Positions 10,553-56,250 of a stretch of DNA of 64,000 bases are shown here, piece by piece; the first letter of the stretch is position 1, and every line of letters begins with the position of its first letter. The stretch lies in IMG/VR virus record IMGVR_UViG_2571042346_000003. One strand, given 5' to 3'. Source of the DNA: a virus. The translations under genes and the position numbers were made by a program. The notes beneath the pieces were generated by a model, which was not told the DNA's origin, ran no database searches, and was given only the letters and a program-made list of their open reading frames with translations.

Positions 10553-10583
10553 TTACTTACCGGAAGGGGCCTGGATGTGTCGG
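10553..10583 (-). promoter_or_regulatory. Conserved element-specific promoter motif CCGAC-N14-TCCGGTAAGTAA, copy 1
   Basis: Exact motif, about 56 bp upstream of the baseplate J start. Confidence 0.75.
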
Positions 10584-10609
10584 AGGCGGGATGTGTCGGA
10601 GGCGGGATG
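10573..10609. repeat. 16-bp tandem duplication (GGATGTGTCGGAGGCG x2 plus partial copy)
   Basis: Copies at 10573-10588 and 10589-10604, then GGATG. Confidence 0.85.
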
Positions 10610-10611
10610 CC

Positions 10612-11547
10612 TCAGAGCGGGCCGCGCAGTTGCCAGACGGGATTGGGCTGCCCAGAGGTGTTGTTGAGGTAGTGGGATTCCTTCTTGCCCTCGAAATAGA
10701 ACAGACCGATGCGGCCCGGCTCCAGGGTGCTGATCCGGTGAACGGTGCCAGCGGCGTTGTCTTCCGCCTGGCTCTGGGTGTCGAAGCCCAGACCGTTCGC
10801 GGCCAGATAGAGGGCGTGCTCGGCCTGGGGCGTTTCCGTTTCTGGCGCTCCCTCGAAGACCAGGTAATGGCCGTGGTTGTCACCCGGATCGCTGACGATC
10901 CACTTGCCGTTGCGGTCCTGAAAGGCTCCCTCGATGTAGGCGACTTCGTATTCCCCGGCTGGCCAGATGAAGGAATCGTCCGGATCGGGGCTCATCTCGG
11001 CCGCGTCGAACCAGAGCAGATTGAACAGCGAGCGCACGTCCGGCGACAGGCGCACGCTGCGCACCGGCGGTGGTTCCGGATCGGGTTCGGGCTCTGGGGG
11101 TATTTCAGGCTGGGGGTAGCTGGGCGCGGGATTGTTCGGGTCTTCTCTGTAGAAGGGATAGACCAGGTTACCGTCCACCTGGCTCTGGATCACCCGGTAG
11201 GCGATATGCACCAGCAGCAGGTTGCCGTCGATGTTCAGCGGCCGGTCGTCGAAGCGCACCTCCGTGATGATCACCCGCTTTTCCCAGCGCTTGATGGCGT
11301 CGATCACGTAATGGCGCAGCAGGCCCTTGAGCACCTCGTCGTTCTGTTCGAACACCAGATCCTTCAGCCGGGAGCCGAACTCAGGATTCATGAACCGTTC
11401 ACCGATCCGGGTGCCGAGGATCTGCAGGATGCTTTCGCGGATGTGCTCGTGCTCCCGCGATGTGGCGGTCGAGACCTGGGTGCCGCCGGATACCGACTGA
11501 AACCGGAACGGGTAACGCAACCCCTTGCCGAGGAAATCGTAGCTCAT
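10612..11547 (-). CDS. gp25/GPW-like baseplate wedge protein with a C-terminal extension, 311 aa
   Basis: MSYDFLGKGLRYPF...HIRESILQILGTRIGERFMNPEFGSRL is gp25-like. A Pro-rich linker (PQPEIPPEPEPDPEPPP) leads to an extra domain. ATGA overlap with the upstream gene. Confidence 0.8.
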   Translation of the reverse strand: MSYDFLGKGLRYPFRFQSVSGGTQVSTATSREHEHIRESILQILGTRIGERFMNPEFGSRLKDLVFEQNDEVLKGLLRHYVIDAIKRWEKRVIITEVRFDDRPLNIDGNLLLVHIAYRVIQSQVDGNLVYPFYREDPNNPAPSYPQPEIPPEPEPDPEPPPVRSVRLSPDVRSLFNLLWFDAAEMSPDPDDSFIWPAGEYEVAYIEGAFQDRNGKWIVSDPGDNHGHYLVFEGAPETETPQAEHALYLAANGLGFDTQSQAEDNAAGTVHRISTLEPGRIGLFYFEGKKESHYLNNTSGQPNPVWQLRGPL

Positions 11548-12437
11548 CAGGCACGCTCCTCGCAGTCGAGGCCGCACTGTCCAGAGCAGCCAGTTTCCGG
11601 TGCGCCGTCGTCGATGGCTTCTCCCTGGAACCGGACCACCAGATCCAGACCGCTTTTCAGTCCCAGGTGGATGGTTCCGTCCGCCTCGATCAGCCCGCCG
11701 TGGCCGGACTGGCCACACTGGAATCCCTTGGCTCCGCCGGAGAGCAGACGGACAGCGATGGTTTCGCCGATGCCCTCGATGCGGCCGATGCCGATGATGT
11801 CGATAGGTCCGGCCGAGTTGATCAGGGTGATGAACCGCTCCCGGTGATCGACGTCGAGGCGGATGCCCTCGGGCAGAACCACCGCGAAGCGTTCCGCGCC
11901 CATGGTGGTCGGCTCGATCCCGGCGGGCAGTCCGCTGATACCGGCTGCCTCCTGGGTCGAACGCAGATAGGACTCGACCAGGGTGTAAAGGCGTCCCGGG
12001 GCGACCTCGATGGCCGTGCCGGGTCCGGGGGTGATGACCTGCTGTTCCCCTCCGTCGATAACGCAGATTCGCTGGTCGTCCGTGGTCCGCAGGATCATGC
12101 CGTCGGGCAAGGTGAAGAGCCGGTTGCCGTCCGGCAGATCCCGGGGTTCGGTGCCCACAGGCAGTTCGACGAAGGGATAGAAATCGGGCTCCGGCTCGAT
12201 CTGTACCTGCTCCAGGTACTCCTGGGTCCTGGCCTGCTGGGCCTCAAGATAGGCCTGGGCCTGGCCACGCATCGCCTCCGAGGCGGCGTGACTGGCATCC
12301 AGCAGCGTGCGGATGCCGGAAAGTTCTTCACGGATGCCGGACAGGTGATCGCAGAGCGCCCGCAGCACATACTGTTGTTGGCCGGAATCGGTTTGTTCTA
12401 TGGTGGCCTGCAAGTCGGCGGGTTCTTCGGAAATCAT
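11547..12437 (-). CDS. Hypothetical protein (coiled-coil N-terminus, beta-rich C-terminus), 296 aa
   Basis: GGAGG RBS before ATG at 12437, translationally coupled to gp25. Confidence 0.6.
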   Translation of the reverse strand: MISEEPADLQATIEQTDSGQQQYVLRALCDHLSGIREELSGIRTLLDASHAASEAMRGQAQAYLEAQQARTQEYLEQVQIEPEPDFYPFVELPVGTEPRDLPDGNRLFTLPDGMILRTTDDQRICVIDGGEQQVITPGPGTAIEVAPGRLYTLVESYLRSTQEAAGISGLPAGIEPTTMGAERFAVVLPEGIRLDVDHRERFITLINSAGPIDIIGIGRIEGIGETIAVRLLSGGAKGFQCGQSGHGGLIEADGTIHLGLKSGLDLVVRFQGEAIDDGAPETGCSGQCGLDCEERA

Positions 12438-12449
12438 GGACAACCTCCA

Positions 12450-13775: not shown

Positions 13776-14039
13776 TCAGTTGTCGATGGTGTCGGGACTG
13801 CCGGTGACGATGATGGCTCCGCAGGCGGTGATGTCGCCGATGCGGGCGTTGGGCAATCCTTCGGTGATGGTGTCGAAGCTGCCGGTCACGATGGGCGTCA
13901 CGCCATGCCCCGGAATGGGACAGACGTGCAGATCCCCCATGCGGGCCACCGGCATGCCGTTGTCCAGCGTCCGACTGGCCCCGGTGATGATGACGCCGCC
14001 GTGACTGCTGATGTCGCCGAGCCGCGCCTGGGAGCTCAT
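13776..14039 (-). CDS. PAAR-domain spike-tip protein, 87 aa
   Basis: QARLGDISSHGG...PVARMGDLHVCP...PNARIGDITACGA gives three PAAR-like motifs. Confidence 0.9.
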   Translation of the reverse strand: MSSQARLGDISSHGGVIITGASRTLDNGMPVARMGDLHVCPIPGHGVTPIVTGSFDTITEGLPNARIGDITACGAIIVTGSPDTIDN

Positions 14040-15884: not shown

Positions 15885-16255
15885 GACCGCCACCTCGCCT
15901 TGCCCGACTGGCGCACATCGAGATGGACCCAGGAGGCATAGACACCGATGCCGCCCTCGCGGAAGAGCGGAATTTCCTCGGCGATGACCGCCAGTTCCTC
16001 GGGCGAAACGCCTGCGGGACAGCTCACGTCGGCCGCCATGCCCAGCGTGTGGAAACTCTGCTCCGCGCCGCCCACGGTTTTGTTGTGCCGGTTGCACCGG
16101 AAGCCGCTGGTGATGGACAGCGGTTTGCCGATGCGGTCACGCAACGCCTGCAGGGCCTCGACCAGGTCGGGATGGACCGCAGCCGAATGGCCGCAGCAGT
16201 TCTTGCCCTTGCAGGCGAATTCCGAACGGTTGAAATTCTTACTGAGATCACCCAT
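15881..16255 (-). CDS. Peptidase M15A family endolysin/peptidoglycan hydrolase, 124 aa
   Basis: ITSGFRC..HN..VGG...SFHTLGMAAD...GIGVY..WVHLD zinc peptidase motifs. Confidence 0.88.
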   Translation of the reverse strand: MGDLSKNFNRSEFACKGKNCCGHSAAVHPDLVEALQALRDRIGKPLSITSGFRCNRHNKTVGGAEQSFHTLGMAADVSCPAGVSPEELAVIAEEIPLFREGGIGVYASWVHLDVRQSGKARWRS

Positions 16256-17531
16256 TGCCGCCTCCTTGTGTGACCGCGCCGGAATCCGCGTCGATGGTCA
16301 CCATGGCTGGCGGCTCGTTTTGCGGCGTGGGCGGGGCCTCCTTGTCATTGGGTTTGCCCTGGGACTCGGCGGACTTGTCGCCCGCGCCCTTGCCGAGGGC
16401 GTTCTTCTTGAGTTTGAGTTCGCAGAGATAGCCAGCGCCGCTGATGCTGTGGCGCACCGAGTGGCAGTAATAGATGCCGGAAAACTTCCGTCCCACGCCC
16501 TTGATCTCGACGTTTTTCTTGGCGCGTAGCTGGGGAATGCCGATGGTGGCCGCGTCCGCCTCGACCTGGCGCAGCTCGGCCTCGCGGAATTTGCCTTCGG
16601 CGCTGTCCTGGGCGGGCTCCTGGCGTGGCTCTTCGTGAAAGCCTTCGGAACGGTCGAAGCTGGGCACGATCTGCCCCGTCTCCTGTTCCTTGAAGCTGCC
16701 TTCGCCGGTGTTGCCGTCGACCAGATAGGTCTGCTTGCCCAGGGCCGTCCGCTCGGGCGTGGTGGCGTTGTTGGCCTTGTGCTCGACCACGTCCTTCTTG
16801 CGCGGGTCGATACCGACCGTCTTGGTCTCGACACCCGCGCCCTTGGCTCCCTGGGATTGGGTGCTGGGGCGGAACGAGCGCAGCAGGCCCTTGGTGTCGG
16901 TGAAATATTCGAGGGTCAGAAGCGGCGTCTGGTCGAGCTCGCGGGGATGGAAATGGAGTTCGTCGTCCTGGATGTAGAAGACATAGCCGCTCACGCCGTC
17001 GCCATCGCGGTCACGGGCCTTTTCCGCCAGCTCCTTGAGGAACTGGGCGTCCGAGATGTTGCTCTGGGTGACGCGGAGATGTGTTCCCTTGGTTGCCGTG
17101 ACCACCGGGGTGAGGCCGTTGGCGGCGGCGATCTGTTCGGCGATTTCCGAATAGAGGATGCCGGGAGCGGGTTTTTGCCAGACCTTCTGGTTCTCCTTGC
17201 CCGCGAGTTTGAAGCCCTTGTCGTAGGCCTTGATGCGGATGGTCGGATCGCCGTTTTCCGGGAAGTCGTAATCGATGTCCTTGATGACCGCCTTCTTGCG
17301 CGGGGAGAGGTTCCCCACGTAGCCGAAGCGGGCCACGATCTCGTTGCCTTCCTGGAACAGCGGATCGTCGACGAACTGCAGGTTGCGGTCGGTCACCGAC
17401 AGTTCGAGGACATCCAACTCCTCCTCGTTGTCGGTGAAAACGAACGAGGTGATCTCCTGGGTGATGTCCTTCGAGAGGTCTTGCCCCTCGATCTGAATCA
17501 GAAATGTCGGCTTGAAGGTATCCAGATCCAT
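16248..17531 (-). CDS. Baseplate hub (phage late control gpD/gp27-like), 427 aa
   Basis: FGYVGNL...IKAYD...QSNISDAQFLKELA...G.Y....VRHSISGAGY pattern. Confidence 0.8.
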   Translation of the reverse strand: MDLDTFKPTFLIQIEGQDLSKDITQEITSFVFTDNEEELDVLELSVTDRNLQFVDDPLFQEGNEIVARFGYVGNLSPRKKAVIKDIDYDFPENGDPTIRIKAYDKGFKLAGKENQKVWQKPAPGILYSEIAEQIAAANGLTPVVTATKGTHLRVTQSNISDAQFLKELAEKARDRDGDGVSGYVFYIQDDELHFHPRELDQTPLLTLEYFTDTKGLLRSFRPSTQSQGAKGAGVETKTVGIDPRKKDVVEHKANNATTPERTALGKQTYLVDGNTGEGSFKEQETGQIVPSFDRSEGFHEEPRQEPAQDSAEGKFREAELRQVEADAATIGIPQLRAKKNVEIKGVGRKFSGIYYCHSVRHSISGAGYLCELKLKKNALGKGAGDKSAESQGKPNDKEAPPTPQNEPPAMVTIDADSGAVTQGGGNG

Positions 17532-17561: not shown

Positions 17562-17592
17562 TTACTTACCGGAAGGCATGGCGAGGTGTCGG
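17562..17592 (-). promoter_or_regulatory. Promoter motif CCGAC-N14-TCCGGTAAGTAA, copy 2
   Basis: Exact motif, about 31 bp upstream of the hub gene. Confidence 0.75.
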
Positions 17593-18678: not shown

Positions 18679-21600
18679 TCACAGGGTTTCGTAGTTTCTG
18701 ATCTTCCGTTCGCGAAGATCCTTGTAGACCGCCTCGGCCACCTTCCGGCCATCGATGTTGGTGGTCACGCTCAGTTCCACCGGGCGGTCGGCCAGACCAT
18801 CGAGGCGCGAGAGCAGCGATTCCAGAAGCTCGCGCAGACCCGGACCAACTTCCTCTCCCCGCATGGGTGTCGATGGAGCGGTGCGAGCCGGAGTAATCAA
18901 CCGTTCGGAAGGCACCGTCTCGGTGAGTCCCGATTGCAGTGGCTTCGCAATCGGAGTCGGCGCGGCCGTCTTGGGCCGTTCAATCCCGGCTGGAACTGGC
19001 GAAACACTTCCAATTTCCGGTGCCGGTTCCACGGCGAACGGCTGGATATAGCTCTTACTTACCGGCTCGACGGCCGCTGCGACGATCTGCACGGTACCGT
19101 TCATCGGTTGCGGGGGTGGCGCGGCCGTGGCCATGACCGGCTGGAGCATCAGCATGGCGCTCAGGGCCTTGGGCACCAGGCGCTCGTCCAGACGCGGCAC
19201 AAGACTGAGCACGCTTTCGATGATGCGTTGCCCAATCGATTCGTCGGGTGGCGCGGTTTTGAATGGTTGCTTCTGCTCGGCCACCTGCGGAATCGGGGTC
19301 TGGACTCCCAGCATGGCGCGAGCGGAGGAGAGCAAACCGTTGGCGATCCCGGCGCTGCGATCTTTGATCGCCTGAATGCCCGCGCTCGCGACGCTGGAAA
19401 GCCTCTGCCAGAGGGATTGCCCCTCGGTACCGGCACTGGCAAAGATTCGGCCCACAGCCCCGGGGACGGCCGACAGCGTGGCAACGATCCGGTCGCGGAG
19501 ATTGACGGCTCCCGTGGCCAGCGCGTCCCAGGTATTGGCTTGGGGCGGTTTGATCGCCAGCTCGGGCGTGTCGCCAAACAGGGATTGTTTGAGACCTCCG
19601 AAAATGGTACCAGCCTTGGCCGCGACGGTTTGAGCGCCGGAGGTCAACCCGTCCCAGAGTTTTCCGGCCATGCGGAAGGGAGCCGAGGCGGCGTCCATGA
19701 GGTTGCCGCCCGCCGTTTTGATCTGCTGCCACGCTCCCGCAGCGGCCGAGAGAATTCCGCGAGCGGCGAAGCCGAACACTTTCGCGGGCAGCGTCTGGGT
19801 AAGGCTCATGCCGTCGGCGAGGGTCTTGAGCAGCGCGGAACCGGAGGCGGTCAGGCTGGAGAGTGGTCCCTCGCGGGCATCGGAGAACGGCAGCAGATTG
19901 CGCAGCTTGCCCAGGGCGTTCTTGAGCATGGTGAAGGGATAGGTCACCGCCGACCAGATCCCTTCGCCAAGGGTGATCAGCAGCTTTTTGCCCGCCTCGA
20001 AGAAGGTGGTGTCCCCGGCGAAGAAGGAGCGCACGGTGGCAAACATCTCCCGCAGAGTGCTGATGATCGGCAGATTCAGAATCGCCTGGCCGATCTGTCC
20101 GGCGGCGTCGGCCACCAGGCGTCCGATGGAGGTGAAGATGCCGGAAATGAAATTCCAGACCCCGACCACCACATCCCGCGCCCAGCGGAACGGGGTGGCA
20201 AGAAAGTCGTAGACCGCGCCGCCAATGGCCTTGAGACCGTCCAGCAGGGAGATGTCGCCGGTCAGCACCTGCCAGACCGCATAGACGATCTTCCCGGCGG
20301 CCATAAATGCCTCGCCGATCATGCGCAAGGGCAACAGGAACTTGTAGATGAACTTGGTTGCTCCGACCAGGGACCCGACGATGACCTTGCCGACCCAGAC
20401 CACGCTGCGCACCACCACCGCCAGGGCTCGGACGATGAGCGACAGGTTCCAGGCCACGATCTTCAGCGCGAATGCCAGCCCCTGCAGAAGCACACCGGCG
20501 ACGGTGCCGATAACCGTGCCGAAGGTGCGCCAGGACGACCCGTCGGTGGCGCTGGCGGCAACGCCGAAGATCTCCACCACCGAAAAGACCGCGCTGGCCA
20601 GCGCCGCATAGGCACTCATCAGGGTGCGGACGGTGGGTTCGAGGATGGCGCGGATGCGGCCAAAGGCATGGGAGAACGCGGCCCACAATCCGGCCAGGGC
20701 CTCACGAACGCGGTAATAGGCTTTGAAGACGGTGACCACGAAGTCCATCAGTCCGGCGGATTCGAGCTTCTGGGCCAGTTCGGCCGACATCTGCCCGACG
20801 CCGCCGCTGAGCGAACCCACCAGCTCTCTGATCCCCCGGAACACCAGCGAGACCTTGTTCCAGGCACCGGTGATGATTTCCTGGATGCCGCCGAAGTTGG
20901 TTTCCCAGGCGCGTTTAAGCAGATACACCGAGAGGATCACGCCCGCGATGGTCGCGGTGACGGGCAGAAAATAGGTCGCGACCGCCGAACCCACCCCGGC
21001 GAGCGCGGCGCTGATGGCCACGAACCCGGCCTTGATGGCGGGAAGCATGAGTCCCACCATGCCTACGGCGGCGGTGACGGCTCCGGCCACGACCAGAATG
21101 GTGCCGAGGGCCATGGACAGTCCCAGGACCACCCGGGTCACGCCCGGCATCGATTTGGCCATGCGTTGCAGGAACAGAATGAAGCGGGAGACGCCGTTGA
21201 TCACCGGCGTGACCACCGGTAGCAGAGTGCGTCCCAGGATTTCGCTGAGGTTGGCCACCTGCTGGCGCAGGAGCAGGAACCGGGCTCCGATGTCCTGGTT
21301 CATGGCGTCGGCCATCTGTTCGGTGACCGCCGTGCCGGTTTTCATGGCTCGGCCCACCGACTGGATATTGCCTTCGAGGCTCTCCATGCCCGCCGACATC
21401 TGCAGCAGGAACTTGACCGCCTCGTCGGAGCCGAAGGCCTTCTTCAGCTTCACCTGGGCGGCGGCGTTGGAGAGATCGGGGAACTGGCGCTTGATCTCCT
21501 GCAGAATGGGAACCACGCCCTTGAGACGGCCGCTAGTGTCGGTGAAGGACAGCCCCAGCTCGTCACCGGCCTCGGCCGCCTTCATGATGAACGCCTTGTA

Positions 21601-45089: not shown

Positions 45090-45100
45090 TGACCACCCGC

Positions 45101-45508: not shown

Positions 45509-46105
45509 TCAGACCTGGAGAATGTTTTCGACCAGCTTGTAAACCGTGGTGCCGCCAAGGGCTCGTGGCCAGTCGGCACAAGGAGGATTGTCGCGCAGCC
45601 TGGCGCGGCGGATGGCCTCATCGATTCGGTCGCGGGTGATCTTGCGTGCGTCGATCCCCTTGTCGTAACCGGGAAGATGCCGCTTCAGCCGGTCGCTGCA
45701 ATCCCGTGACGATGCGATGCCGGTGCCGTCCTCGAAATGGAGCAGCAGCCAGTATTCGAACTTGGGGTTGCTCAGGGCGAAGCCGTAATTGTCGCGTGCC
45801 TGAGCCCAGGCATGAAGCTGGTCCAACTGTTCGTCGGTCCACTGATCCTTGTCCACCACGAGCCAGGCTTCGTCGGAGGATCTCAGCTCCTCCTGGCGGA
45901 GATGGTCCTCCATCCGCTTCAGGACCTGCGGCGGGGAGCTATCGTGGCTGCCTTTGAGACAGTTCACCCGGATCACCGATTGCTGGTCATTGAAGATGGC
46001 GAAATACTGCGGCTCGGTCTTCACGCCTTCCACCGCGATCACGAACAGTTTGCGGTAGCGACGCTCGCCAAGGGGTCTCTGGAATTTGCGTCTCTTCGGC
46101 GGCAT
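45509..46105 (-). CDS. RloB-like (TOPRIM-fold) protein, 198 aa
   Basis: [13 protein letters not shown]...AWLVVDKD...[13 protein letters not shown] motifs. Confidence 0.85.
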
Positions 46106-47451
46106 CAGTCATCCCCCTCACTTTCCTCGGTGAGGCAGGGATTGGTCAAAGCGCCTCCCAACAGAATCCGGGGAATCCCACCCAGTCGCCCCTGCAGGTA
46201 GCTCTTGCGGATATCCTTGTCGTATCGGACATCCTTGTACTCGCTGAAGGAGAGCAGGTTCGAAGCTCCGGTGGCGTCTCTTTCGGCGACCCACATCTCG
46301 TCGCGGCGCAGGAGTTGCTGATCCATGAGCAGAACGTCATGGGTGGTCAGCAGCAATTGCGTTCTGGTTTCCGTGGAGCAGTTGGCCAGGTACGCTTCGA
46401 GCAATCTGCGTGTCAGCAGCGTGTGCAGGCTGCGGTCGACCTCGTCTATCACGTAGACCTTCTTCGAGACCTGGGCCGACAGCTCAAGAAACGCGGGCAG
46501 CAGATCGATCACCCGCTGCGAGCCGTCGGACTCCTGACGGATCTCGAACTTGGCTTCCGTGCCGTCCGCCTTCGGATGATAGGTCACCAGCTTCTTGGCG
46601 ATCAGCTCGCCACTTTTGCGGGTCACCACGAACCGTTCGTTGATCGGCTCGGTCAGCAGACGAACGGTCATGCCTTCCTTCACGTCTTCCTGCAGCTTGG
46701 TTTTCAGCGGCTCGGGCAGCGGAATGTTTTCGAAGGGGATCTCCTCGCCACCCAGGTGCGCGATGCCGGTGTCGAGCTGCGGCAGCATCTCGTTCATGGT
46801 CGAGTAGAGCGGATGCCCCTCGTCGAGGAACTGCTCGAACGGTTCGAAGCGGGAATCGGGCGCGACCAGCTCGAGCGTGTCCTTGAACCAGTCGTAGACC
46901 GGCCGGAAATTGTCGACCTTCTGGGAGACCGAGTTGGTCAGAAAGAGTTGATTGTCCCGGGTCCCTTTGAAGGCGAACTGGAGGAACTGGTCCTTGGCCA
47001 GGGAATCATCGAAGTTGGGCTTTCCGTCTCGACGGTGGTAGAGCACCTTTTCACTGGTGCTGGTGATGACCACCAGCTTCTCTTCCAGAACCGCCTTGCG
47101 GGTCACCGCGAAGCTGAACTCGTAAATGATCTCGTCGATCAGCAGCTCGAAGCCAAACCGTGACGGCTGATCGGCCACCTTGGCGTCCAGCCGAAACGGC
47201 TCGACAGGAATCAGGCTGTCGGGCTGGGTCCCCTTGACGACCAGCGCCTTGGCGAAACTCAGTGCCTTGAAAAAGTTGGTCTTGCCCGACGCGTTGCCGC
47301 CATAAATTGCCGCAACCGGAAGAACTCTCGTCTGGTACTTGCCGAGCTTGGGAACCCTGTCTCCATGCTGGCGCTCCCTGCTGGCGACCATCGAAAATGT
47401 GACCTGGTTGCGGAAGGACATCCAGTTTTCGAGTGAGAAACTGACTATCAT
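46105..47451 (-). CDS. RloA-like ABC/AAA_21 ATPase, 448 aa
   Basis: [10 protein letters not shown] Walker A, ESDGSQR signature, [10 protein letters not shown] Walker [20 protein letters not shown]-terminus. Confidence 0.85.
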
Positions 47452-47494
47452 CTTACCGCCTCCTAAAGTGAAATATTCGCTTTATCATGCCTTT

Positions 47495-47523
47495 AATATA
47501 GGCATGGGCGACCGGAAAGTCAA
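47495..47523 (-). promoter_or_regulatory. Sigma70-like promoter for the RloAB pair
   Basis: TTGACT-N17-TATATT on the minus strand. Confidence 0.55.
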
Positions 47524-47544
47524 TCTAAAAGAGAAAATATCTCG

Positions 47545-50500
47545 TTAAACACCTTTGCTGCTGATCCGGTACTCGAAGTTCTTGGTGTGGGCGTTGCGCT
47601 GCCGGACGATATCGAACCCGGCATCCCGGATGACGTCCAGGTCGTTGCTGATGCGCCGACCGAGCTGGGCGGGCTTCTTGTATTCGAACTCGATGTTGAA
47701 TTCCCGGCCGACCCTGCGCAGCGCCGCGAGCAGCCGTCCCGCAGACACCGGTTCCATGGTGTTCTCGTTCTCGAACCTCACCTGGTAGCGTTCGATGAAC
47801 CCCACCACATGGTTTGCCCGGTCGTCCTCGCCGTAGCGGGCCTTCTCGTCCAGCTCCACCGCGTTCCGATAAGCGTGGAAGAGCGACGCCAGCGCCGTTG
47901 CGATGGGGTTCGACTCCCGGGCCATCTCCTGGCTGGTGTCGTTGATGGAATGGATCTGCTCGATGAACAGCGGGCTCAGCTCCTCGAGTCCGGTAGTCAC
48001 CTCGTGCTCCTCGGACCCGGCCAGCATCATCAGGTACATCAGGCTCAAATAGTCGTTGCACCGGCGCTTGCCATGGGTCGGCATGGTTCGGTGCAGCAGA
48101 CGCATGACCTGTTTCTGGGCTCCGTCCCGGATCATCGCCAGCACATGGCTGGTCCGCTTCATGATGGCCGAGATGATCAGATCCCGGTTCTGCTGGATGG
48201 CGGAGATGACCTCCGATTCCAGAAAGCAGTCGCTGGCCTGGTTGGCGAGGTCGAAGTTGATGACGAAGGACCTCGACAGGATCTCCGAAAGCTCTCCGCA
48301 CAGCGGCTCGATGCCGGTGGTGTTCAGCAGGCATTTGGTCCGCTCGGTGATGGTCTCGCTGTCGGTGCCGCTCTTGCGTTTCTCCTTGGCGATGCCGGTG
48401 ATGCTGGTCAACATGAAGGTGGTCAGATCCTCGGTCATCTGCTTGACCTCGATGTTGTCGAGGACGATGAGCGGGTTCTGGGAACCATCGGTGTAGTTCG
48501 CCGCGTCGGTGGCCTTCTTGTGCTGGGGCTCGCCGTAAAGCAGTGTCGACGTGATCTTGCTGGCGGTGGTCTTGCCCGATCCGGCCGAGCCCTCGAAGCG
48601 GGTCATGGGCCGCGTCCCGGCGAAGTCGATCAGCAGGAAGCAGGAGAGCCAGGAAAGGATGAGAAAGCGATCCCCCTGCGGGCAGGTCATGTTGCCCACC
48701 AGCAGATCGACCAGGAGCCGGTCCGCCTCTTCGAGGTCGGCGTCGGGCAGGAATTTCAGCGGCTTCATCTTCCGCGAGCCGTCCAGGATGATGCCGTCCT
48801 CGTTGCCGCCGTTCTTCATGATCCGGATCTCGTCCGGGGTGATCTTGGCGATCTCGTGCTCCGGATTGTTCAGATTGAAATAGACGGTGTAGGAGGCCAC
48901 ATCGGTGTGCAGCCAGGAGAAATGGTCGCGCACCTGGCCACGGATCATGGCCAGGCTGGGCAGCACCTCGAAAAATGTCCGTCCGCCGCCCGTGGTCGGC
49001 ACCATACCCGTGTGCTTGTAGAGCATGGCCGCGTAGTGGCGCTTGCGGCCCCGGTCCGGCGAATCCATCCAGTAGATGGCGTTGTCGAAATACATGAACG
49101 GCTCGCCCTGCAGGGTGTGAAAGAACTGGGCACCGTTGGCGGTGAACCAATCGTAGGCGGCCTCGGCGGCCAGGGTGTAGTCGGGAGCTCCGTTCTCCAG
49201 CTCCGTGTCGATCAGCACCTCGTCGACCCGGGCGCGGCACGATCCGGGCATCGCGCCGGACATCCGCTTGGCCTTCTTCTTTTCGTTGCGGAACTCGACT
49301 TTACGGTCCTTCTGGATGGCGCGGATCTGCTCTTTGAGGGTGGCCATCGAAACACCACCGCCGATGCGCTCCTGCACCAGCTTCAGCAGACGGGCCTGTT
49401 CCAGCGGCGACTGCTCGGAAATCTCCCCCAGGATCGGTTCGAGCAGGCGGTTGCGTTCCTCCTCTTCAGCGCCCTCGGGCAGCGAGCGCACGCCGAACTC
49501 GATGGGCGTGCTGGCCTCGGCGAGCAGACGTTCGAAATCCTCCCGGGTATGCCCGGCGGCAATGTAATCGTTGACGTCGATCTTGGCGGTGGCGAGAAGC
49601 GCTTCGGCCGCCTGAATTTCCTGGGCGGAACGCCCCGCCAGCAGCTTGGCCAGCTCCTTCGGCCCCACGCTCGCCGTCAGGCTGAAGCGTTCGGTCAGCT
49701 CCTGCCGGGCCGAGATCTGTGTCTCCGACAAGGGCAGCGTCACCAGGCGGGTGTCGATCTTGTGTTCGGCCAGGGTGCGGGCGGTTTGCAGCGCCCCTTT
49801 GAGACCGGCCTGGGAGAGCTCGTTGTCTTGACAGATGTAGACGGTTTCGACGCCGCGCAGCTTGGGGATCAGGCGCTCCCAATCGGCGGCCCGGATGCGG
49901 ACGGTGACCGGAGATACGGTGGGCAGGCCCAGTTGCATCAGCGCCAGGCAATCGGTCACCCCCTCGGTGATGATCACCTTGCCGGGCCGGGCCAGCAGAC
50001 AGTCCTCGTTGAACAGCAGCGCGTTGTTGATGAAGTCGGCGACGTAGGGCCGCTGGTGCTCGTCATGAACCGGCAGTTTCTTGTATTTCCCTTGCTCCCA
50101 GCCCACGTCCGGAGTCCACGGCGTCTTGCGGCCGATCATGAACACTACCCGGCCACGGCTCCAGTAGGGAAAGACGATGCGGCGCTCGAAAAATGGCGTC
50201 AGGCCGTCCTGGCTGGTGGGACGGAAAGCGCCGGTGGCGGCGAGCTCCCGCTTGGAAAAACCGTCCTCACCCCCGGTCAGTTGGGCGACCGCGCCGGACG
50301 CGTTGTCCGCGTAGCCGATCAGGAGATCGTCGATGGTCTCCTCGCTCAGGGCGTATTTGGATTTCAGCCAGTCGAGGACCTCCGGCGACTCCTTCAGCCT
50401 GGCGTGGTAAAGCCTGGCCAGCGAGGTCAACGCGTCCTTGACCCGCAGTTCGAAGGCGCGGTCGGCCTCCGTCTGGGCCAGACGCTCCTGGCTGAGGCCA

Positions 50501-50856
50501 TAGCGCGACAGCGGAGGCAAGCCCGCCTTCTTGGCGAGATAGTCCCGGGCCTGACGGTGGCTGTCCGGCATCGGACCAGATTGCCCGGCGGTGACCGAGC
50601 CCGTCTGAATGAACTCAACGAGCTGCAGCACATCACCGCCGACTCCGCAGCCGAAGCAGTACCAGCCCTGCTTGTCGAGCATCACGTGCAGCGACAGACG
50701 CGACTGGCTCTGATGGTTGGGGCAGTCGCACATCAAGCGCTGGCCGGTCTCCTGGGTGATCCGTCCAGGCAGGAGTTCCCGGGCCACCTCACCGATGTCC
50801 ATCTCGGTGACGAGCCGGTAATATTCCCTGACGTTATCCGTTCCGCCCATACTCAT
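47545..50856 (-). CDS. Primase-helicase fusion (CHC2 zinc finger + TOPRIM + P-loop NTPase), 1103 aa
   Basis: CPNH...WYCFGCGVGGDV zinc finger, IITEGVTD...YICQDNE TOPRIM, EGSAGSGKTT Walker A, IVLDN Walker B. Confidence 0.85.
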   Translation of the reverse strand: MSMGGTDNVREYYRLVTEMDIGEVARELLPGRITQETGQRLMCDCPNHQSQSRLSLHVMLDKQGWYCFGCGVGGDVLQLVEFIQTGSVTAGQSGPMPDSHRQARDYLAKKAGLPPLSRYGLSQERLAQTEADRAFELRVKDALTSLARLYHARLKESPEVLDWLKSKYALSEETIDDLLIGYADNASGAVAQLTGGEDGFSKRELAATGAFRPTSQDGLTPFFERRIVFPYWSRGRVVFMIGRKTPWTPDVGWEQGKYKKLPVHDEHQRPYVADFINNALLFNEDCLLARPGKVIITEGVTDCLALMQLGLPTVSPVTVRIRAADWERLIPKLRGVETVYICQDNELSQAGLKGALQTARTLAEHKIDTRLVTLPLSETQISARQELTERFSLTASVGPKELAKLLAGRSAQEIQAAEALLATAKIDVNDYIAAGHTREDFERLLAEASTPIEFGVRSLPEGAEEEERNRLLEPILGEISEQSPLEQARLLKLVQERIGGGVSMATLKEQIRAIQKDRKVEFRNEKKKAKRMSGAMPGSCRARVDEVLIDTELENGAPDYTLAAEAAYDWFTANGAQFFHTLQGEPFMYFDNAIYWMDSPDRGRKRHYAAMLYKHTGMVPTTGGGRTFFEVLPSLAMIRGQVRDHFSWLHTDVASYTVYFNLNNPEHEIAKITPDEIRIMKNGGNEDGIILDGSRKMKPLKFLPDADLEEADRLLVDLLVGNMTCPQGDRFLILSWLSCFLLIDFAGTRPMTRFEGSAGSGKTTASKITSTLLYGEPQHKKATDAANYTDGSQNPLIVLDNIEVKQMTEDLTTFMLTSITGIAKEKRKSGTDSETITERTKCLLNTTGIEPLCGELSEILSRSFVINFDLANQASDCFLESEVISAIQQNRDLIISAIMKRTSHVLAMIRDGAQKQVMRLLHRTMPTHGKRRCNDYLSLMYLMMLAGSEEHEVTTGLEELSPLFIEQIHSINDTSQEMARESNPIATALASLFHAYRNAVELDEKARYGEDDRANHVVGFIERYQVRFENENTMEPVSAGRLLAALRRVGREFNIEFEYKKPAQLGRRISNDLDVIRDAGFDIVRQRNAHTKNFEYRISSKGV

Positions 50857-53081
50857 TCGGCCTCCGCGACACGGGCGAAATCGGCTTCCGCGTGTTGGGC
50901 GGCGTCCAGGAACAGGGGCAGAAAGGTCCGGCGGTCATCCACCTGGCAACGCTTGGCGCAGTTCTGGATGCCCCAATGGTCACCCAGGACAATGGCGGTG
51001 CGCCGGGCACGAGTCACCCCGGTGTAGAGCAGATTGCGGTGGTGCATGAAGGAATGCGCCTTGTGGACCACCACCACGGCGCAGGGGAATTCGGAACCCT
51101 GGGTTTTGTGGATGGTGAGCGCATAGGCGAGCTGCAGGTCCTGAAGGTCGGGCGAACCCTTTTCCATCTCCACCGGCATGCCGTCGAAGTCGATGACCAG
51201 GGTGCCGTTCGCGAGGACATCAACCACATAGCCGATGGCACCATTCATCACATTCAGGTCGTAATTGTTCCGGGTCTGGATGACCTTGTCGTGCTTGAGA
51301 AACGGAGCGCGGCGGCCCATAGCGACCGTCGGTACCTCGGCGTTCCAGAGCTTGCGCTGGATGAGCCGCTGCAGTTCCTCGTTCAATTCCTTGGTGCCGA
51401 GCGGCCCCTTGTGGGTCGGCGTCAGCACCTGCACGTCCTTGATGATGTCGAACCCCAGGGCGTCGAGCCGCTCCTGAAACAGCTCCAGCAGGAACGAGCG
51501 TGCCGCCATCGGGTCGGTGAACTGATCCACCAGATACCAATCCCGGCATCCAGCCACCGATGCCTCGCTGGTCTTGCGCACCTCGCCCTTGAGAACGGCG
51601 GTGCAGTTCTCCTTGAGGACACCAGCCTGGCGCACGACCTTATCGAGGATGACCGTGGGGATGGCGCGTGTCTGGATCAGATCGCGCAGGATGTTTCCGG
51701 GTCCCACCGGCGGAAGCTGGTTGTGGTCACCGACCAGCAGCACCGTGGTCCGCGACAGGTCGACCGCCTCGAACAAGTGCCAGGCCAGGGGCACGTCCAC
51801 CATCGAAAACTCGTCGACCACCAAGACGTCGGCATCGATGGGGTTCTCCTTGCTACGCGAGAAACCCTTGCCGTCATAGCCGAGCAGACGGTGGATGGTG
51901 GTGCCGCTACGGCCGCTGACTTCCTCCAGGCGCTTGGCGGCCTTGCCGGTCGGCGCGGCGAGCACGACCTCCAGGTCGCTCTCCTCGCAGATAGTGTTGA
52001 TGACCGAAATGGTGTAGCTCTTGCCCGAACCGGCTCCACCCGAAATCAGGCTGATGCTGTGCTGGAGGGCCGAGCGCACCGCTTCGAGCTGCTTCTCGTT
52101 CAGCGTTGATGCGCAGCGCCGAATCAGGGCATCGAGTTTCTTGACGGACTGGAAATGCGGGTTGGGTGTTTCGGCCTGGCCGAACAACGAGGCCAGCTCC
52201 CGCTCCATGCGGACGATCTCCGGCAGAGCGACCACGAAACGTCCGCCGTGGGAATCGCAGGAAAGCGCCTGTTCTTCGATGAGCGCGTCGAGGGCGCTCT
52301 CGATACGGACCCGGCTGTCCAGGGCATCCATGACCAGCAGCAAATTGGCCTGGTCCACCAGATCCTCGTATTCTATCCAACAGTGGCCATTGTCCAGGGC
52401 TTCACGGACGCAGAAATTCAATCCGGCCCGGATACGAGGGGTATGGTCCTTGGGGGTTCCCAGCTTGCGGGCGATCTTGTCGACCTTCTTGAAGCCGAAT
52501 CCCCGGATCTCCCAAATGAGGATGTACGGGTCTTCCTTCAGGATATCGAGGCAGTTGCCGCCGAGTCTTTCGACCAGGGTGGTGACCTGATGATGGGTCA
52601 GGCCGAATGCCGACAGCCAGGCCATGACGGTGTTGACGCTACGGTTCTTCAACCATTCGTCACGCAACCGCCGGGCCGCGTCCAGGGGCAGTCGAGCCTT
52701 GAGCGCAATGCGCTCGGGGTCGTTCAGAAGGGTTTCTTCAAAGGCGTCGCCGAAGCTCTCGACGATCAATCTGGCCTTGGCCGGTCCAATGCCCTTGATC
52801 TCCGGATGGTTGGCCAGATAGTGGATCAGCCCCTCCGGATCGAGTTCGAGGTCGTGCTCCATCCCGTCGACCTTGAACTGACGGCCGTATTTGGGATGGG
52901 TGGACCACGACCCGAGCAGGACCACAGGCTGATTTTCCCGGGCGAACAAATTGCCCGCGAACTGGACTTCCTCACCGGCCGGGGTGAGCAGTCGGCCTGC
53001 GGAGAACTTGGGTCCGGCATAGTAAACGCGCTCTATTCTTCCCCGGAGTCGCGCCGGGTTACTCTCATTTCTTTTTGGCAT
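50853..53081 (-). CDS. RecD2/TraA-like SF1B helicase, 742 aa
   Basis: HhH region (IKGIGPAKA), GGAGSGKS, VVDEFSM, GDHNQLPPVG, YALTIHKTQGSE, LLYTGVTRA. Confidence 0.9.
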   Translation of the reverse strand: MPKRNESNPARLRGRIERVYYAGPKFSAGRLLTPAGEEVQFAGNLFARENQPVVLLGSWSTHPKYGRQFKVDGMEHDLELDPEGLIHYLANHPEIKGIGPAKARLIVESFGDAFEETLLNDPERIALKARLPLDAARRLRDEWLKNRSVNTVMAWLSAFGLTHHQVTTLVERLGGNCLDILKEDPYILIWEIRGFGFKKVDKIARKLGTPKDHTPRIRAGLNFCVREALDNGHCWIEYEDLVDQANLLLVMDALDSRVRIESALDALIEEQALSCDSHGGRFVVALPEIVRMERELASLFGQAETPNPHFQSVKKLDALIRRCASTLNEKQLEAVRSALQHSISLISGGAGSGKSYTISVINTICEESDLEVVLAAPTGKAAKRLEEVSGRSGTTIHRLLGYDGKGFSRSKENPIDADVLVVDEFSMVDVPLAWHLFEAVDLSRTTVLLVGDHNQLPPVGPGNILRDLIQTRAIPTVILDKVVRQAGVLKENCTAVLKGEVRKTSEASVAGCRDWYLVDQFTDPMAARSFLLELFQERLDALGFDIIKDVQVLTPTHKGPLGTKELNEELQRLIQRKLWNAEVPTVAMGRRAPFLKHDKVIQTRNNYDLNVMNGAIGYVVDVLANGTLVIDFDGMPVEMEKGSPDLQDLQLAYALTIHKTQGSEFPCAVVVVHKAHSFMHHRNLLYTGVTRARRTAIVLGDHWGIQNCAKRCQVDDRRTFLPLFLDAAQHAEADFARVAEAE

Positions 53082-53515
53082 CTCGCGATCCTCCGGTGAA
53101 AACGTGTCAGGTACTCCTCGACAAAACGGCAGGCGGCCTGCCGGTCCGAGCAGAAGTAGACGGGGACACCGAAGTCGACGACGATGGAGGCGACCGTTCC
53201 GATCAGCGCATGCGGGTGGGCATCGCTGCGGTAGCGGCCATCGACCAGATCGCGAAAGTTGCACTCGACAACCACGCAGGCGGATTCGTAGGCTGAGAAC
53301 TTTTCCAACTCGCGGTGAAACCGCTTTCGCCCCCGAATGACGGTGGAGACGAAATCCGTCAAAGATTTGCGCTCCACCGCCACCCGTTCCTCGAGGCCAA
53401 CCAGCGAGTAATCACCGGCGGGCAGCGCCTTGCGAACCGCCGAAACCTTATCGCTATCGAAGCTGTAGGGCTCCTGTTCGCGGGTGTCGACGACAACGGT
53501 GATCCGGTCCATCAT
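53033..53515 (-). CDS. ERCC4-domain nuclease, 160 aa
   Basis: VVDTREQ...GDYS...VERKSLTD motif. Confidence 0.88.
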   Translation of the reverse strand: MMDRITVVVDTREQEPYSFDSDKVSAVRKALPAGDYSLVGLEERVAVERKSLTDFVSTVIRGRKRFHRELEKFSAYESACVVVECNFRDLVDGRYRSDAHPHALIGTVASIVVDFGVPVYFCSDRQAACRFVEEYLTRFHRRIARCQKEMRVTRRDSGEE

Positions 53516-53988
53516 CAGAACGGGATCATGTCGTCCATCGCCGCGCCGGGAGCCCCGGCATCGTCGGCCATGACAATGCGACGGTTGAAGTAGATGTTCT
53601 CGTTTTCACCGCGAGTGCGCTTGGTCACCTCCAGCTTGATGTTGAGAAGCTGCTCGAGGTGGCCCGGCAGGTCGGAGAGCTTCTGAAGCTGCAGCCCGCA
53701 GGTGTAGAGGTCCTGCTTGAGCCACTTGATGTTCTCGTTGCTGGCCATGACGTTGTTGCGCCAGAGCAGACGACCCTTGTGGGTCGGCGCGAGAATGCGC
53801 AGAGTCCACTTGAGCATGGGATTGCCCGAGGTCTGGGCGCGGGTCAGTTCGACCCGGTCGACGTTGACCTGGTACTTGCCGTCGGGGACGGCCTCGAACT
53901 CACGTTCCTCGACTTCGGCGGTTTCAAAGGCGTCGTCGAACTGCGCCAGGTCGAGGTTGCTGCTGGATTGGTTTTCGTAGTGTTCCAT
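53515..53988 (-). CDS. DUF669-like single-stranded DNA-binding protein, 157 aa
   Basis: VPDGKYQVNV...SGNPML.W pattern and acidic DDMIPF tail. Confidence 0.75.
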   Translation of the reverse strand: MEHYENQSSSNLDLAQFDDAFETAEVEEREFEAVPDGKYQVNVDRVELTRAQTSGNPMLKWTLRILAPTHKGRLLWRNNVMASNENIKWLKQDLYTCGLQLQKLSDLPGHLEQLLNIKLEVTKRTRGENENIYFNRRIVMADDAGAPGAAMDDMIPF

Positions 53989-54000
53989 GGTCGGATCTCC

Positions 54001-54771
54001 TTACTGTTGAGGTTTCGCCGCCGCACTCGCGGTCGGCTCCGGCTTCGGCCGGGCGGCACTCGCCGCAGCTCCGGCTGCCGCGTTGTTGAAGGCTTTCACG
54101 AAGCTCGAAAAATCGAGGGGGATGACTTCGGGGAGTCGGCCGGTGCGGTCACCGGCGTCGTAGTTGGGACTGGGCTTGGTGCGCATCACGCGCTGCCAGA
54201 CCGGCTTGCCGTCCTCGCCGGTTTTCATGTCCAGGTCGCAGAACAGGATCAGGTCCACCAGACCGGTGACCAGCTTCCGCGCCTTTTCCGGAAGCGTCGG
54301 CACGATGCGTGTGTGTTTGCCGGTCCGGGTCTCGATCTCCCGCTCCTGAGAGTGGGAGATCAGGATCAGCCCGTAGGGCAGGAAGGCGAGCTTGTTGATG
54401 ACGCGCTGGAACTCGTTGTTGATCAGCGCGTAGCCCTTGCCGTAGCCTAGGTCGGACTCGTGCTCGATCTTGAATTTCTTGCAGACGTAGTCCGAGCACA
54501 TCTTGTATGCGTTATCCACCGTGTCGACGACGATGGTCTTGAACTCGTGCTTGCCCTCGGCGATCTCGGCGCAGGCTTGCAGAAGGTCGTCCCAGCAGGT
54601 GATCGGGGTCTGGAACACCTCCAGGGCGTTCAGACCCGGCTCGGTCGCCAGGAACAGTGCGTCATCGGCCTTGGAGCACCAGGTGCTCTTGCCGATCTTG
54701 CTCGGGCCGTACACCAGGGCGGTGAGGTCCGAGAGCGTGTGTTTGGGTTTGCTTTTGGTCTTGGGAAGCAT
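54001..54771 (-). CDS. Sak4/AAA_24-like phage NTP-binding recombinase, 256 aa
   Basis: VYGPSKIGKST Walker A, TIVVDT Walker B, GYGKGY, LISH. Confidence 0.8.
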   Translation of the reverse strand: MLPKTKSKPKHTLSDLTALVYGPSKIGKSTWCSKADDALFLATEPGLNALEVFQTPITCWDDLLQACAEIAEGKHEFKTIVVDTVDNAYKMCSDYVCKKFKIEHESDLGYGKGYALINNEFQRVINKLAFLPYGLILISHSQEREIETRTGKHTRIVPTLPEKARKLVTGLVDLILFCDLDMKTGEDGKPVWQRVMRTKPSPNYDAGDRTGRLPEVIPLDFSSFVKAFNNAAAGAAASAARPKPEPTASAAAKPQQ

Positions 54772-54797
54772 GGCTTCGTCTCCTTATGGTTGGGATT

Positions 54798-55814
54798 TCA
54801 AAACACCGGAGCGGCGTCTTCACCGGCTCCGTCCCGCAGCTCTTCGTGCGGGGCGATCCGTTGGAAATGGTTTTCGATGACGTTGGGGTTGCCGCCCGAG
54901 CGGCAGAGCTGGAAGTAGGCGCAGGGCCTTCCGTACTGGAAGCAGTAGCTGGTGTTGCGGTAGAAGGTGTCGCGCCGACGGGCGTCGAGCATGGCCTTGG
55001 AGAGTTCCCACAGCTCCGCCCGCAGTTCCTCGAACTGGTCGCGGGAGATGTAGAGCACCTCGCGGTGGAACATGCCCGGCTCGAGGTATTTCTCCTGGAG
55101 CCGCTGCTGAAAGGTGTCGTCGTCCTCCGGCAGCTTGCGCTTGGCGCTGCTCTTGCCGGTTTTCGACTTGGCGATCAGCTCCGCCCGGCGGGCCTCGAAT
55201 TCGGCCTCGGTCTCACCCTTGCCCTGGCGCAGCTTGGCCTTGACCAGGACGTTGTAGATGATGCCGCTGACCGTGATGCCGAGGGTCTGCTCCAGGTACC
55301 AGGCGTAGAGGATGATCTGGAAATCGGTCCACAGCCGTTCCAGGTAGCTGGCGTCGATCTGCGAGGCGGTTTTGTGTTCCAGCAGGAAATACTGGCCATC
55401 CTGACGGACGATGCCGTCCACCTTTCCGGCGAGAATGAAACTGCGCGAGGTCGCGCCGGTCGCCGGGTTGACGATGGGACCTTCGAAGGTCTTTTCGAGC
55501 GCGACGACCTCGAACTCTTCGGCCGGGTAGTGTTCCGCATAAGCGCTCATCATGGCCCGGGCGAGATGCCAGTCGGCCTGTTGATGATCGTCCTGAGCCC
55601 GGTTCGGATAGGTCCGGTCGATGTGGTCGAGGACCTTGGCCAGATCCCGCTCGCCGTGCCAGCACTCCAGGCAGTCGTGAATGACCGAGCCGAAGGCCAG
55701 ATTGGGGTCGCGCTCGAGCGGCACCAGCTCGTTGATGTAGCGCCACTTGCAGGCCATGCGGCAGTTGCGGAACAGCCGCCACATGGAATAGGTGGTGGTC
55801 ATTAGCTCGCTCAT
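54798..55814 (-). CDS. PD-(D/E)XK exonuclease (Cas4/AddB-like), 338 aa
   Basis: FRNCR...FGSVIH...GKVDG...LEHKT...Q...Y and C...G..C.YFQLC cysteine staple. Confidence 0.85.
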   Translation of the reverse strand: MSELMTTTYSMWRLFRNCRMACKWRYINELVPLERDPNLAFGSVIHDCLECWHGERDLAKVLDHIDRTYPNRAQDDHQQADWHLARAMMSAYAEHYPAEEFEVVALEKTFEGPIVNPATGATSRSFILAGKVDGIVRQDGQYFLLEHKTASQIDASYLERLWTDFQIILYAWYLEQTLGITVSGIIYNVLVKAKLRQGKGETEAEFEARRAELIAKSKTGKSSAKRKLPEDDDTFQQRLQEKYLEPGMFHREVLYISRDQFEELRAELWELSKAMLDARRRDTFYRNTSYCFQYGRPCAYFQLCRSGGNPNVIENHFQRIAPHEELRDGAGEDAAPVF

Positions 55815-56149
55815 ACCGCCACCCCCGCTGTAGCAGCGGCGGGCGCTGCGCGATGCTTGGAGGCGCAGGCACAGCCCGACGGCTGGGTTCGTTCGATCAG
55901 GACCGAGCGTTCGCCGTACTCCTTGGTGGCGAAGCCGGTAAAGATGCGGGCGAGATCACTGCCGACATCGGTGGAGGCGTCGATCACGCAGGTACGGCGG
56001 GCCTTGTCCAGATTGAACCGGCTCTCCATCCGCACACGGGAACGTCCGTGCAGGCTTTCGACGGCCAGCATCGCCAGCATGAAAGTGTCTTCCAGTTCCT
56101 GGGCCGGGACCGACTCGTCAAAACGGTACTTGTAGGTGTCGTGAGTCAT
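55811..56149 (-). CDS. Hypothetical protein, 112 aa
   Basis: GAGGAG RBS before ATG at 56149 (MTHDTYKYRF), first gene after motif copy 8. Confidence 0.6.
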   Translation of the reverse strand: MTHDTYKYRFDESVPAQELEDTFMLAMLAVESLHGRSRVRMESRFNLDKARRTCVIDASTDVGSDLARIFTGFATKEYGERSVLIERTQPSGCACASKHRAAPAAATAGVAV

Positions 56150-56219
56150 GGTTGAACTCCTCTTTTGTTCAGGTTCTGATTTCCGAGGCCCCGGATAGCC
56201 GCACCATGCGGCACGGTGC

Positions 56220-56250
56220 TTACTTACCGGAGGCGGAGCCGATGCGTCGG
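56220..56250 (-). promoter_or_regulatory. Promoter motif CCGAC-N14-TCCGGTAAGTAA, copy 8
   Basis: Exact motif starting 3 bp after the sigma gene stop. Confidence 0.75.

Follow-up and report, generated by a model that had tools for sequence, protein, structure and literature searches.

A phage-encoded sigma factor of the ECF type and its probable private promoters in a widespread family of temperate myoviruses

The DNA analysed here (the window) is a stretch of 64,000 nucleotides (nt) from a virus, IMG/VR record IMGVR_UViG_2571042346_000003, and corresponds to bases 26260-90259 of the 90,363-bp record. The element it carries, known here from sequence, is a temperate myovirus of roughly 62 kb with a contractile tail and with nearly all of its genes on the minus strand (Table 1). 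A sigma factor gene marks the end of the early region, preceded by the genes for a LexA-like repressor and a 108-amino-acid (aa) protein and by a terminator. The present report concerns this sigma factor and a bipartite sequence, CCGAC-N14-TCCGGTAAGTAA, that recurs ahead of the replication and morphogenetic operons. A sequence-only reading of the window had listed eight exact copies on the minus strand; every one of them was matched exactly, and the pattern has exactly these eight matches in the window, 31 nt each, with none on the plus strand.

Table 1. The sigma factor gene, the motif copies with the operons that they head, and neighbouring features (positions in the window).
Feature	Position	Strand	Remarks
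Phage sigma factor	56254-56838	minus	194 aa; ECF-type, sigma-2 and sigma-4 domains only
Copy 1	56220-56250	minus	Heads 112-aa gene and replication/recombination operon (PDDEXK nuclease, AAA_24, DUF669, ERCC4, RecD-like helicase, primase)
Copy 2	45059-45089	minus	Heads 256-aa gene (44248-45018) and 92-aa helix-turn-helix (HTH) gene
Copy 3	43966-43996	minus	Heads terS-like gene 43374-43874 (phrog_1889 terS, weak match)
Copy 4	37445-37475	minus	Heads portal (35862-37409) and MuF-like minor head protein (34300-35862) genes
Copy 5	31411-31441	minus	Heads 803-aa gene annotated as DNA methyltransferase (28946-31357) and major head protein operon, to 26038
Copy 6	26003-26033	minus	Heads tail operon: sheath 23628-25157, tube 23151-23612, tape measure 18679-22314
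Copy 7	17562-17592	minus	Heads tail/baseplate-hub operon: tail protein 16248-17531 to gp25-like 10612-11718
Copy 8	10553-10583	minus	Heads baseplate J (9088-10497), tail protein 7514-9091 and large distal-tail open reading frame, to 1216
Ninth copy	60683-60713	plus	3 mismatches; putative -10 block CCTCGGTAGGTAA; operon of small open reading frame, DUF2924 (61086-61679) and large serine recombinase (61672-63258), plus strand
Candidate tenth site	19055-19085	minus	Inside tape-measure gene; putative -10 block GCCGGTAAGTAA
92-aa HTH protein	43966-44244	minus	"Mor-like" activator of the sequence-only reading; directly upstream of terS
Conserved 112-aa gene	55811-56149	minus	First gene behind copy 1
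Conserved 108-aa gene	57034-57360	minus	Just upstream of sigma gene; strong Shine-Dalgarno sequence
Intrinsic terminator	57624-57653	minus	Strong; 13-bp stem and T-run; between repressor operon and 108-aa/sigma operon
LexA-like repressor	59953-60624	minus	LexA_DNA_bind and Peptidase_S24 domains

One hundred dinucleotide-preserving shuffles gave a chance expectation of 0.00 for the full pattern, and the remaining 26 kb of the record hold no further exact copy. When k-mers and gapped dyads were counted without prior assumptions, it came out as the sole over-represented motif of the 90-kb record: TCCGGTAAGTAA tops the 12-mers with 8 copies, twice as many as the next unrelated one (4), and CCGAC-N16-CGGTA stands near the top of the gapped dyads with 9 copies, the highest count being 10. 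Other high-count dyads and 9-mers were inspected and rejected as coding-composition noise, being scattered through coding sequence with unrelated flanks. Tolerating up to three mismatches adds only two sites in the record, the ninth copy and the candidate tenth site, where our own arithmetic gives a chance expectation of about 0.2; both have orthologues in relatives that match the motif better. The orthologue of the ninth copy, often a full match, likewise heads the DUF2924/serine-recombinase operon, while the upstream block of the tenth candidate reads TCGTC here and CCGTC in relatives, orthologues in two host genomes fitting CCGWC.

Every copy is oriented toward its downstream genes, which form functionally coherent operons. 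From the end of the motif to the likely start codon there are 70, 40, 91 (or 60), 35, 53-56, 24, 30 and 55 nt for copies 1 to 8, in good agreement with the 25-92 bp noted earlier, and these start codons come with a Shine-Dalgarno sequence. Several copies are placed 3-6 nt behind the preceding gene. One was said to begin 3 bp after the sigma stop; this is copy 1, separated by a 3-nt gap from the stop codon at 56254-56256. Also confirmed for all eight copies was the constant length of the 14-nt spacers, which differ in sequence; the downstream block is A/T-rich although the DNA is 61.6% GC. Orthologues of copy 2 in relatives have different spacers. Copy 3 overlaps the 3' end of the 92-aa HTH gene, lying within the last 10 codons, and the downstream block of the copy reads S-G-K-stop there; the C-terminal SG[K/R] of the protein is conserved, and the motif provides TAA stops in two frames. 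Copy 8 has beside it, at 10584-10615, an additional CCGACACATCC half-site, 16 nt upstream of the CCGAC block; this tandem duplication of the block has no downstream partner.

In a compilation of 63 unique 31-mers, gathered by an N16 pattern, the positions that carry information are CCGAC, a single T nine bases after the start of CCGAC, and CGGTA-N-GTAA, and no others; across the family, ten positions only are conserved. The CCGAC-to-CGGTA spacer, free in sequence, is 16 nt in 63 of the 63 sites; an N15-17 scan of six distant loci yielded two N15 exceptions, one of them within a coding region. The 12-nt downstream block, described earlier as invariant, is so in the eight window copies, whereas only CGGTA-N-GTAA is invariant across relatives. 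The block is also less unusual in length for a -10 element than the accompanying remark had it: the sigma-28 (FliA) promoter consensus is TAAA-N15-GCCGATAA, and the shortened block is no longer than this 8-nt -10 element, the existence of which means that a long -10 block is not unprecedented.

The same reading had called the encoded sigma factor ECF-like, that is, related to the extracytoplasmic function sigma factors, and this was borne out. The protein matches NCBIfam TIGR02937 (sigma70-ECF) with 56.4 bits (cut-off 42.9) over positions 12-163 of 165, and phrog_1740 (sigma factor) at 9e-25. The Pfam r2 and r4_2 models each fall just below cut-off for the window protein, r2 matching 37 of 38 family members, and the FliA/WhiG model scores 12.5 bits, far under its cut-off. 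When the AlphaFold (AF2) model (mean confidence, pLDDT, 79.5) was searched with Foldseek, nearly all top PDB matches were ECF sigma factors (sigmaE 6jbq_F, SigH, AlgU, SigL), in alignments of about 180 columns (187 to sigmaE 6jbq_F); the top PDB match by sequence is the ECF factor RpoE of R. sphaeroides. Judged from these profiles and the predicted fold, the gene product is a genuine two-domain ECF-type (group 4) sigma factor, a family of proteins of about 170-220 aa that lack regions 1.1 and 3. It shares with the cellular representatives (E. coli sigmaE, B. subtilis sigmaW, M. tuberculosis SigH) the combination of sigma-2 and sigma-4, a size of about 190 aa, the fold and TIGR02937. No anti-sigma partner is recognisable, the flanking 108-aa and 112-aa genes matching no Pfam, PHROG or NCBIfam family.

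The association of motif and sigma gene was followed in relatives of the sigma factor, for which 25 genome loci and 40 loci of IMG/VR were collected. Where a viral locus extends over the stretch behind the sigma stop, a motif copy is nearly always present there, with differing spacers and with CCGAC or CCGTC as the upstream block, and it is retained down to 44% sigma identity. In relatives with 44-57% sigma identity the synteny is preserved, and so is the core CCGAC-N16-CGGTA-[A/G/T]-GTAA. A search for covariation of sigma and motif over this range gave no evidence of a specificity swap: apart from the A/G/T at one -10 position, the core is nearly constant down to 44% identity. Four host genomes (22.4 Mb) contain 37 motif matches, all 37 in one-directional clusters beside a sigma homologue, and none (0) to the reversed control pattern; the sigma gene copy numbers, 2, 1, 2 and 1, equal the numbers of clusters. 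In a sample of 401 genomes covering one host's phylum, 16 have motif matches. Five of the 401 have at least 8 matches, and in 5 of 5 the sigma gene adjoins the cluster, while the control pattern produced nine scattered single matches. It had been anticipated that a scan would find enrichment only in elements carrying this sigma factor, and clusters of at least 8 matches were indeed confined to such elements in the host genomes and relatives. Positive autoregulation is a hallmark used for finding ECF promoters. One subgroup of relatives, at 70% identity, has the recombinase operon co-directional with the sigma gene and running into it, so that a motif copy heads the operon containing sigma; judged from this gene order, the arrangement would amount to classic ECF positive autoregulation.

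We postulate, with a probability that we put at about 80%, that host core RNA polymerase, once combined with the phage sigma factor, uses the sites as promoters. CCGAC would be the -35 element, contacted by sigma region 4, and CGGTA, 16 nt downstream, the -10 element, contacted by region 2, with the adjoining A/T-rich GTAA in the melting or start region. Two short blocks held apart by a fixed spacer of free sequence are the geometry to be expected of sigma-2/sigma-4 recognition. The register is uncertain: if CGGTA is a -10 element of the ECF type, transcription may start about 3-4 nt past GTAA, and if AAGTAA corresponds instead to the phiEco32 gp36 element described below, about 8 nt past it. 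In the lysogen, the self-cleaving LexA-like repressor would silence the early region. Induction would inactivate the repressor, a transcript initiated by host sigma-70 would then yield the 108-aa protein and the sigma factor, and the latter would fire all nine or ten promoters as a single switch, covering replication, the HTH/terS unit, the portal-head, capsid, tail and baseplate operons and, on the opposite strand, the DUF2924/serine-recombinase excision operon. The sequence-only reading had likewise proposed -35/-10 elements of the encoded sigma factor and a single regulon; the sequence comparisons lend support to this. They show directly where the sites lie and how they are oriented, to which family and fold the sigma factor belongs, that motif clusters and sigma gene strictly co-occur, and which positions are conserved; we infer from them that sigma binds the sites, where transcription starts, in which order the events run and what the repressor does.

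Several observations weigh against this interpretation. The blocks are atypical, CCGAC (a GAC-type -35) and CGGTA differing from the usual AAC and CGT signature of ECF promoters. In the window no copy lies ahead of the sigma gene itself, the nearest copies following it or pointing away. The large terminase gene, terL (39065-40588), has no copy of its own; control of replication, head and tail, as claimed earlier, agrees with copies before the replication, terS, portal/head, sheath/tail and baseplate operons, but the claim for packaging holds in part only. The association of the 92-aa HTH protein with the motif is just as strict as that of the sigma factor. Finally, single orphan copies persist in sigma-less genomes, for instance that of Desulfobacter postgatei, and a resident sigma factor is therefore not needed to maintain the motif sequence.

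The fourth of these points bears on the alternative that survives best, although we consider it improbable: the motif would be the binding site of another phage activator, the 92-aa HTH protein, acting with host sigma-70, and the sigma factor would have other targets or no dedicated one. A Mor-like activator had been named earlier as an alternative binder. The protein is real and conserved, occurring once per element in the four genomes tested, and its gene stands before terS, the position of the late activator genes of Gram-positive phages (PMC3753634). Its kinship with Mor is less firm. Against Pfam Mor (PF08765) it scores 13.5 bits over profile positions 29-103 of 107, under the cut-off of 24.9, and Mor is absent from an hmmscan at E<=0.01; NCBIfam CD3324_fam gives 25.5 bits, below its threshold of 65, profile searches, including one against PDB profiles, yield generic HTH matches, and the AF2 model has weak, generic HTH fold matches, with Foldseek E values of 0.3-1 to Mu C/Mor (0.3 for Mu C). 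The parallel with phage Mu is that of a temperate phage with a small HTH activator gene before its late genes, and the 92-aa protein may be a remote relative of Mor/C. Mu sites, however, are dyads overlapping the -35 region and are used with sigma-70, whereas among the 63 unique sites the motif has no dyad symmetry and nothing conserved upstream of CCGAC, and the phage has a dedicated sigma factor. Nor is there a sigma-70-type -10 hexamer at 17±1 nt; the hexamers found at 17-18 nt, GTAAGT and TAAGTA, lack TAnnnT. Moreover, the HTH gene lies behind two motif copies, and its product therefore could not start the cascade. An HTH activator would also leave the sigma factor with no candidate promoter in the genome. 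The 92-aa protein may act as a modulator at the late promoters.

That a host alternative sigma factor (FliA-like, or an ECF factor with a CCGATAA-type -10) reads the motif and is exploited by the phage appears very improbable. The idea draws on a resemblance: CCGGTAA is one base from the sigma-28 -10 core CCGATAA, CCG[A/G]TAA being the core of a long -10 element of 8 nt in either case and the spacing from the upstream block being similar. The orphan copies in sigma-less genomes would be in keeping with it. A host regulon, however, would put copies before host genes, and the host chromosomes have none outside the elements and the orphan module. The hosts, furthermore, are very diverse (several Desulfobacterota orders, and contigs labelled Gammaproteobacteria, Verrucomicrobiota and Phycisphaerae) and unlikely to share one specialised sigma factor. 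These two observations render the host-sigma explanation unlikely; the -35 block, moreover, is unrelated to the TAAA of sigma-28, as the low FliA/WhiG score of the phage protein sets it apart from FliA itself.

Least credible of all is that the sites are not promoters at all but module-junction recombination sequences or a post-initiation signal (ops-like pausing or antitermination): cargo indels of natural variants do end within a few nt of copies (joint 37481, loose end 56221), and the CGGTAG variant of distant relatives does match the core of ops (GGCGGTAGnnTG, which shares CGGTAG), but recombination at conserved promoters is an expected by-product and not an alternative function, the sites show no Rfam family and, on folding, no consistent hairpin in the leaders or upstream, a single-block element (ops elements comprise 12 nt of the non-template strand in the transcribed leader) would leave the invariant CCGAC at a fixed 16 nt unexplained, and ops/RfaH antitermination was rejected because the element is bipartite and no NusG paralogue or RfaH-like gene is present in the record (the same search found them in control genomes).

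The sigma-promoter pair that we favour has precedents. In phiEco32, gp36 acts at middle and late promoters through an AATGTA element centred at -11.5 (PMC12276001). As proposed here, a small two-domain phage sigma factor redirects host core RNA polymerase to a private middle/late promoter, the early genes are left to host sigma-70, and contact with the -35 region is made by region 4; the -10 elements are both A/T-rich with a GTA core, AATGTA there and AAGTAA here (PMC12276001). The window likewise combines a phage-borne sigma gene with one conserved promoter-like element before middle and late operons only. The two systems differ in that phiEco32 is a virulent podovirus and the present element a temperate myovirus, in that gp36 needs a co-factor, gp79, of which no counterpart was recognised here, and in the strong, fixed -35 of the present promoter. 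Homology to gp36 was absent from the PDB sequence matches at E<=10 and from the 50 listed Foldseek matches; by analogy, the element would work like the gp36 and ECF paradigms and would not be a homologous member of the gp36 type. Promoters of cellular ECF systems are stringent and bipartite, with blocks 16-17 nt apart and CG in the -10, and ECF factors often regulate their own genes; the putative promoters resemble them in this layout, as one subgroup may in autoregulation. The present system departs from them in lacking a recognisable anti-sigma partner and in a -35, CCGAC, that is not GGAAC-like. It is also encoded by a phage, and its control probably lies with a LexA-like repressor instead of the proteolysis of an anti-sigma factor.

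Deposited phage genomes gave no nucleotide match to 44000-57000, and their only protein matches to the sigma factor came from Wolbachia phage WO. Its sigma-70-like gene product is the closest homologue among them (25% identity over 94% of the length), and in both phages the sigma gene is followed by an AAA_24 replication module. Phage WOVitA1 has no CCGAC/CGGTA-type motif and no convincing repeated 14-mer promoter candidate.

Upstream of the sigma gene, the LexA-like repressor is, from its domains, likely an SOS-cleavable master switch. A sigma-70-like promoter for the repressor gene, TTGACC-16-TATATT (60660-60633), overlaps a palindrome at 60640-60657. A second, perfect palindrome, GTGAAC-N7-GTTCAC at 57428-57446, lies upstream of the 108-aa/sigma operon, just past the strong terminator; it was found in only some close relatives, and is therefore probably an immunity-specific operator. 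Most relatives have a syntenic gene of similar size at the position of the 108-aa gene (it was not called in one), and another follows sigma at the position of the 112-aa gene. A subgroup with 47% sigma identity encodes, in the early operon between the LexA-like repressor and sigma, a 990-aa protein with a Sigma54_activat domain (L075:5527-8499, and L076).

Between terL and terS lies a module of plus-strand genes, one of them for a tyrosine recombinase (41859-42773, phrog_1 integrase). The 803-aa product behind copy 5, annotated as a DNA methyltransferase, had been described in the sequence-only reading as a methyltransferase-protease-scaffold fusion. At 13870-13941, on the minus strand of the tail region, an Rfam match to the Pseudomonas small RNA P10 (RF01668) scores 37.9 bits against a gathering score of 37 and is probably spurious. 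Two intervals, 37481-39065 and 45455-47563, are missing or replaced in natural variants. The first is a 1.58-kb cargo insertion (joint 37481->39065), the deletion of which removes the plus-strand open reading frame 37670-38980; it ends 6 nt upstream of copy 4, and cargo cassettes thus sit directly upstream of promoter copies.

A phage sigma factor with private promoters is a well-known mechanism; the phage family that appears to use it here is unusually widespread and has not been described before. A literature search found neither the -10 block in a relevant context nor a sigma regulon in this phage family. The breadth of hosts and the orphan copies are the more novel leads. Comparison of window 44000-57000 with fourteen loci of the collection (L049-L062) showed the prophage at 94-97% nt identity in isolates of Desulfofustis, Desulfobulbus, Desulforhopalus and Desulfosarcina, which belong to different Desulfobacterota orders. 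Cultured strains with near-identical elements are Desulfofustis glycolicus DSM 9705, Desulfosarcina alkanivorans PL12 and Desulfobulbus rhabdoformis DSM 8777. The same identity was seen in contigs of metagenome-assembled genomes labelled Geobacteraceae, Oleidesulfovibrio, Verrucomicrobiota and Gammaproteobacteria; those with the last two labels are 134-253 kb long, and the labels may be wrong. Judged from these identities, the recent host range appears unusually broad, with the reservation that some of the labels may be mistaken. For a prophage family that is common in sulfate- and metal-reducing bacteria and has been uncharacterised so far, the comparisons provide a complete putative promoter code, CCGAC-N16-CGGTA-N-GTAA, together with its likely regulator. 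The sigma-promoter pair, compact, apparently orthogonal and persistent in very different hosts, might serve as an expression tool in genetically difficult anaerobes and as a handle on prophage induction in communities of sulfate and metal reducers.

The orphan copies have a conserved spacer; behind them come a Shine-Dalgarno sequence and an open reading frame of 63 aa that is likewise conserved. They were found at L090:7938-8660 (D. postgatei), L091, L092, L093, L086:6006-6105 and L087:6240-6494. The 63-aa frame forms at least 153 clusters at 90% identity and is rare in viral contigs; its equation with the small open reading frame behind the ninth copy was rejected, the two having no similarity. 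In L090, L091 and L092 the orphan copy lies between the transfer-messenger RNA (tmRNA) gene and variable defence islands, with smpB beyond the tmRNA gene in L090 and L092; L093 has the same island flank and ends before any tmRNA gene. The islands contain type I restriction-modification, RadC, Fic, PDDEXK_3 and SIR2 genes. The D. postgatei genome has one motif copy only, and a sigma homologue was not found in it. The orphan module may represent a satellite or what is left of a prophage end, or it may serve as a switch that senses infection. It is conceivable, though in our estimation unlikely, that sigma factor and private promoter make up a portable, host-independent transcription module, which would enable 94-97%-identical phages to live in different hosts, and that sigma-less genomes have captured the promoter in trans. 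If so, a captured orphan promoter would fire only when a phage of the family expresses sigma, as a satellite-induction or infection-sensing switch.

Phage sequence was also detected in 20 public sequencing runs, all as assembled contigs, and the four runs that were mapped show no transcript starts. Nineteen small runs from eight studies each contain 54-58% of the sampled words of window 47500-57400; the runs include "metatranscriptomic" libraries of 60-460 Mb from wastewater, aquatic samples and sludge. The phage family occurs in samples from wastewater, from sludge and from aquatic sources, and single runs show microdiversity: in three RNA runs and one run of uncertain type, hundreds of variant contigs map per run, with co-existing variants and cargo indels.

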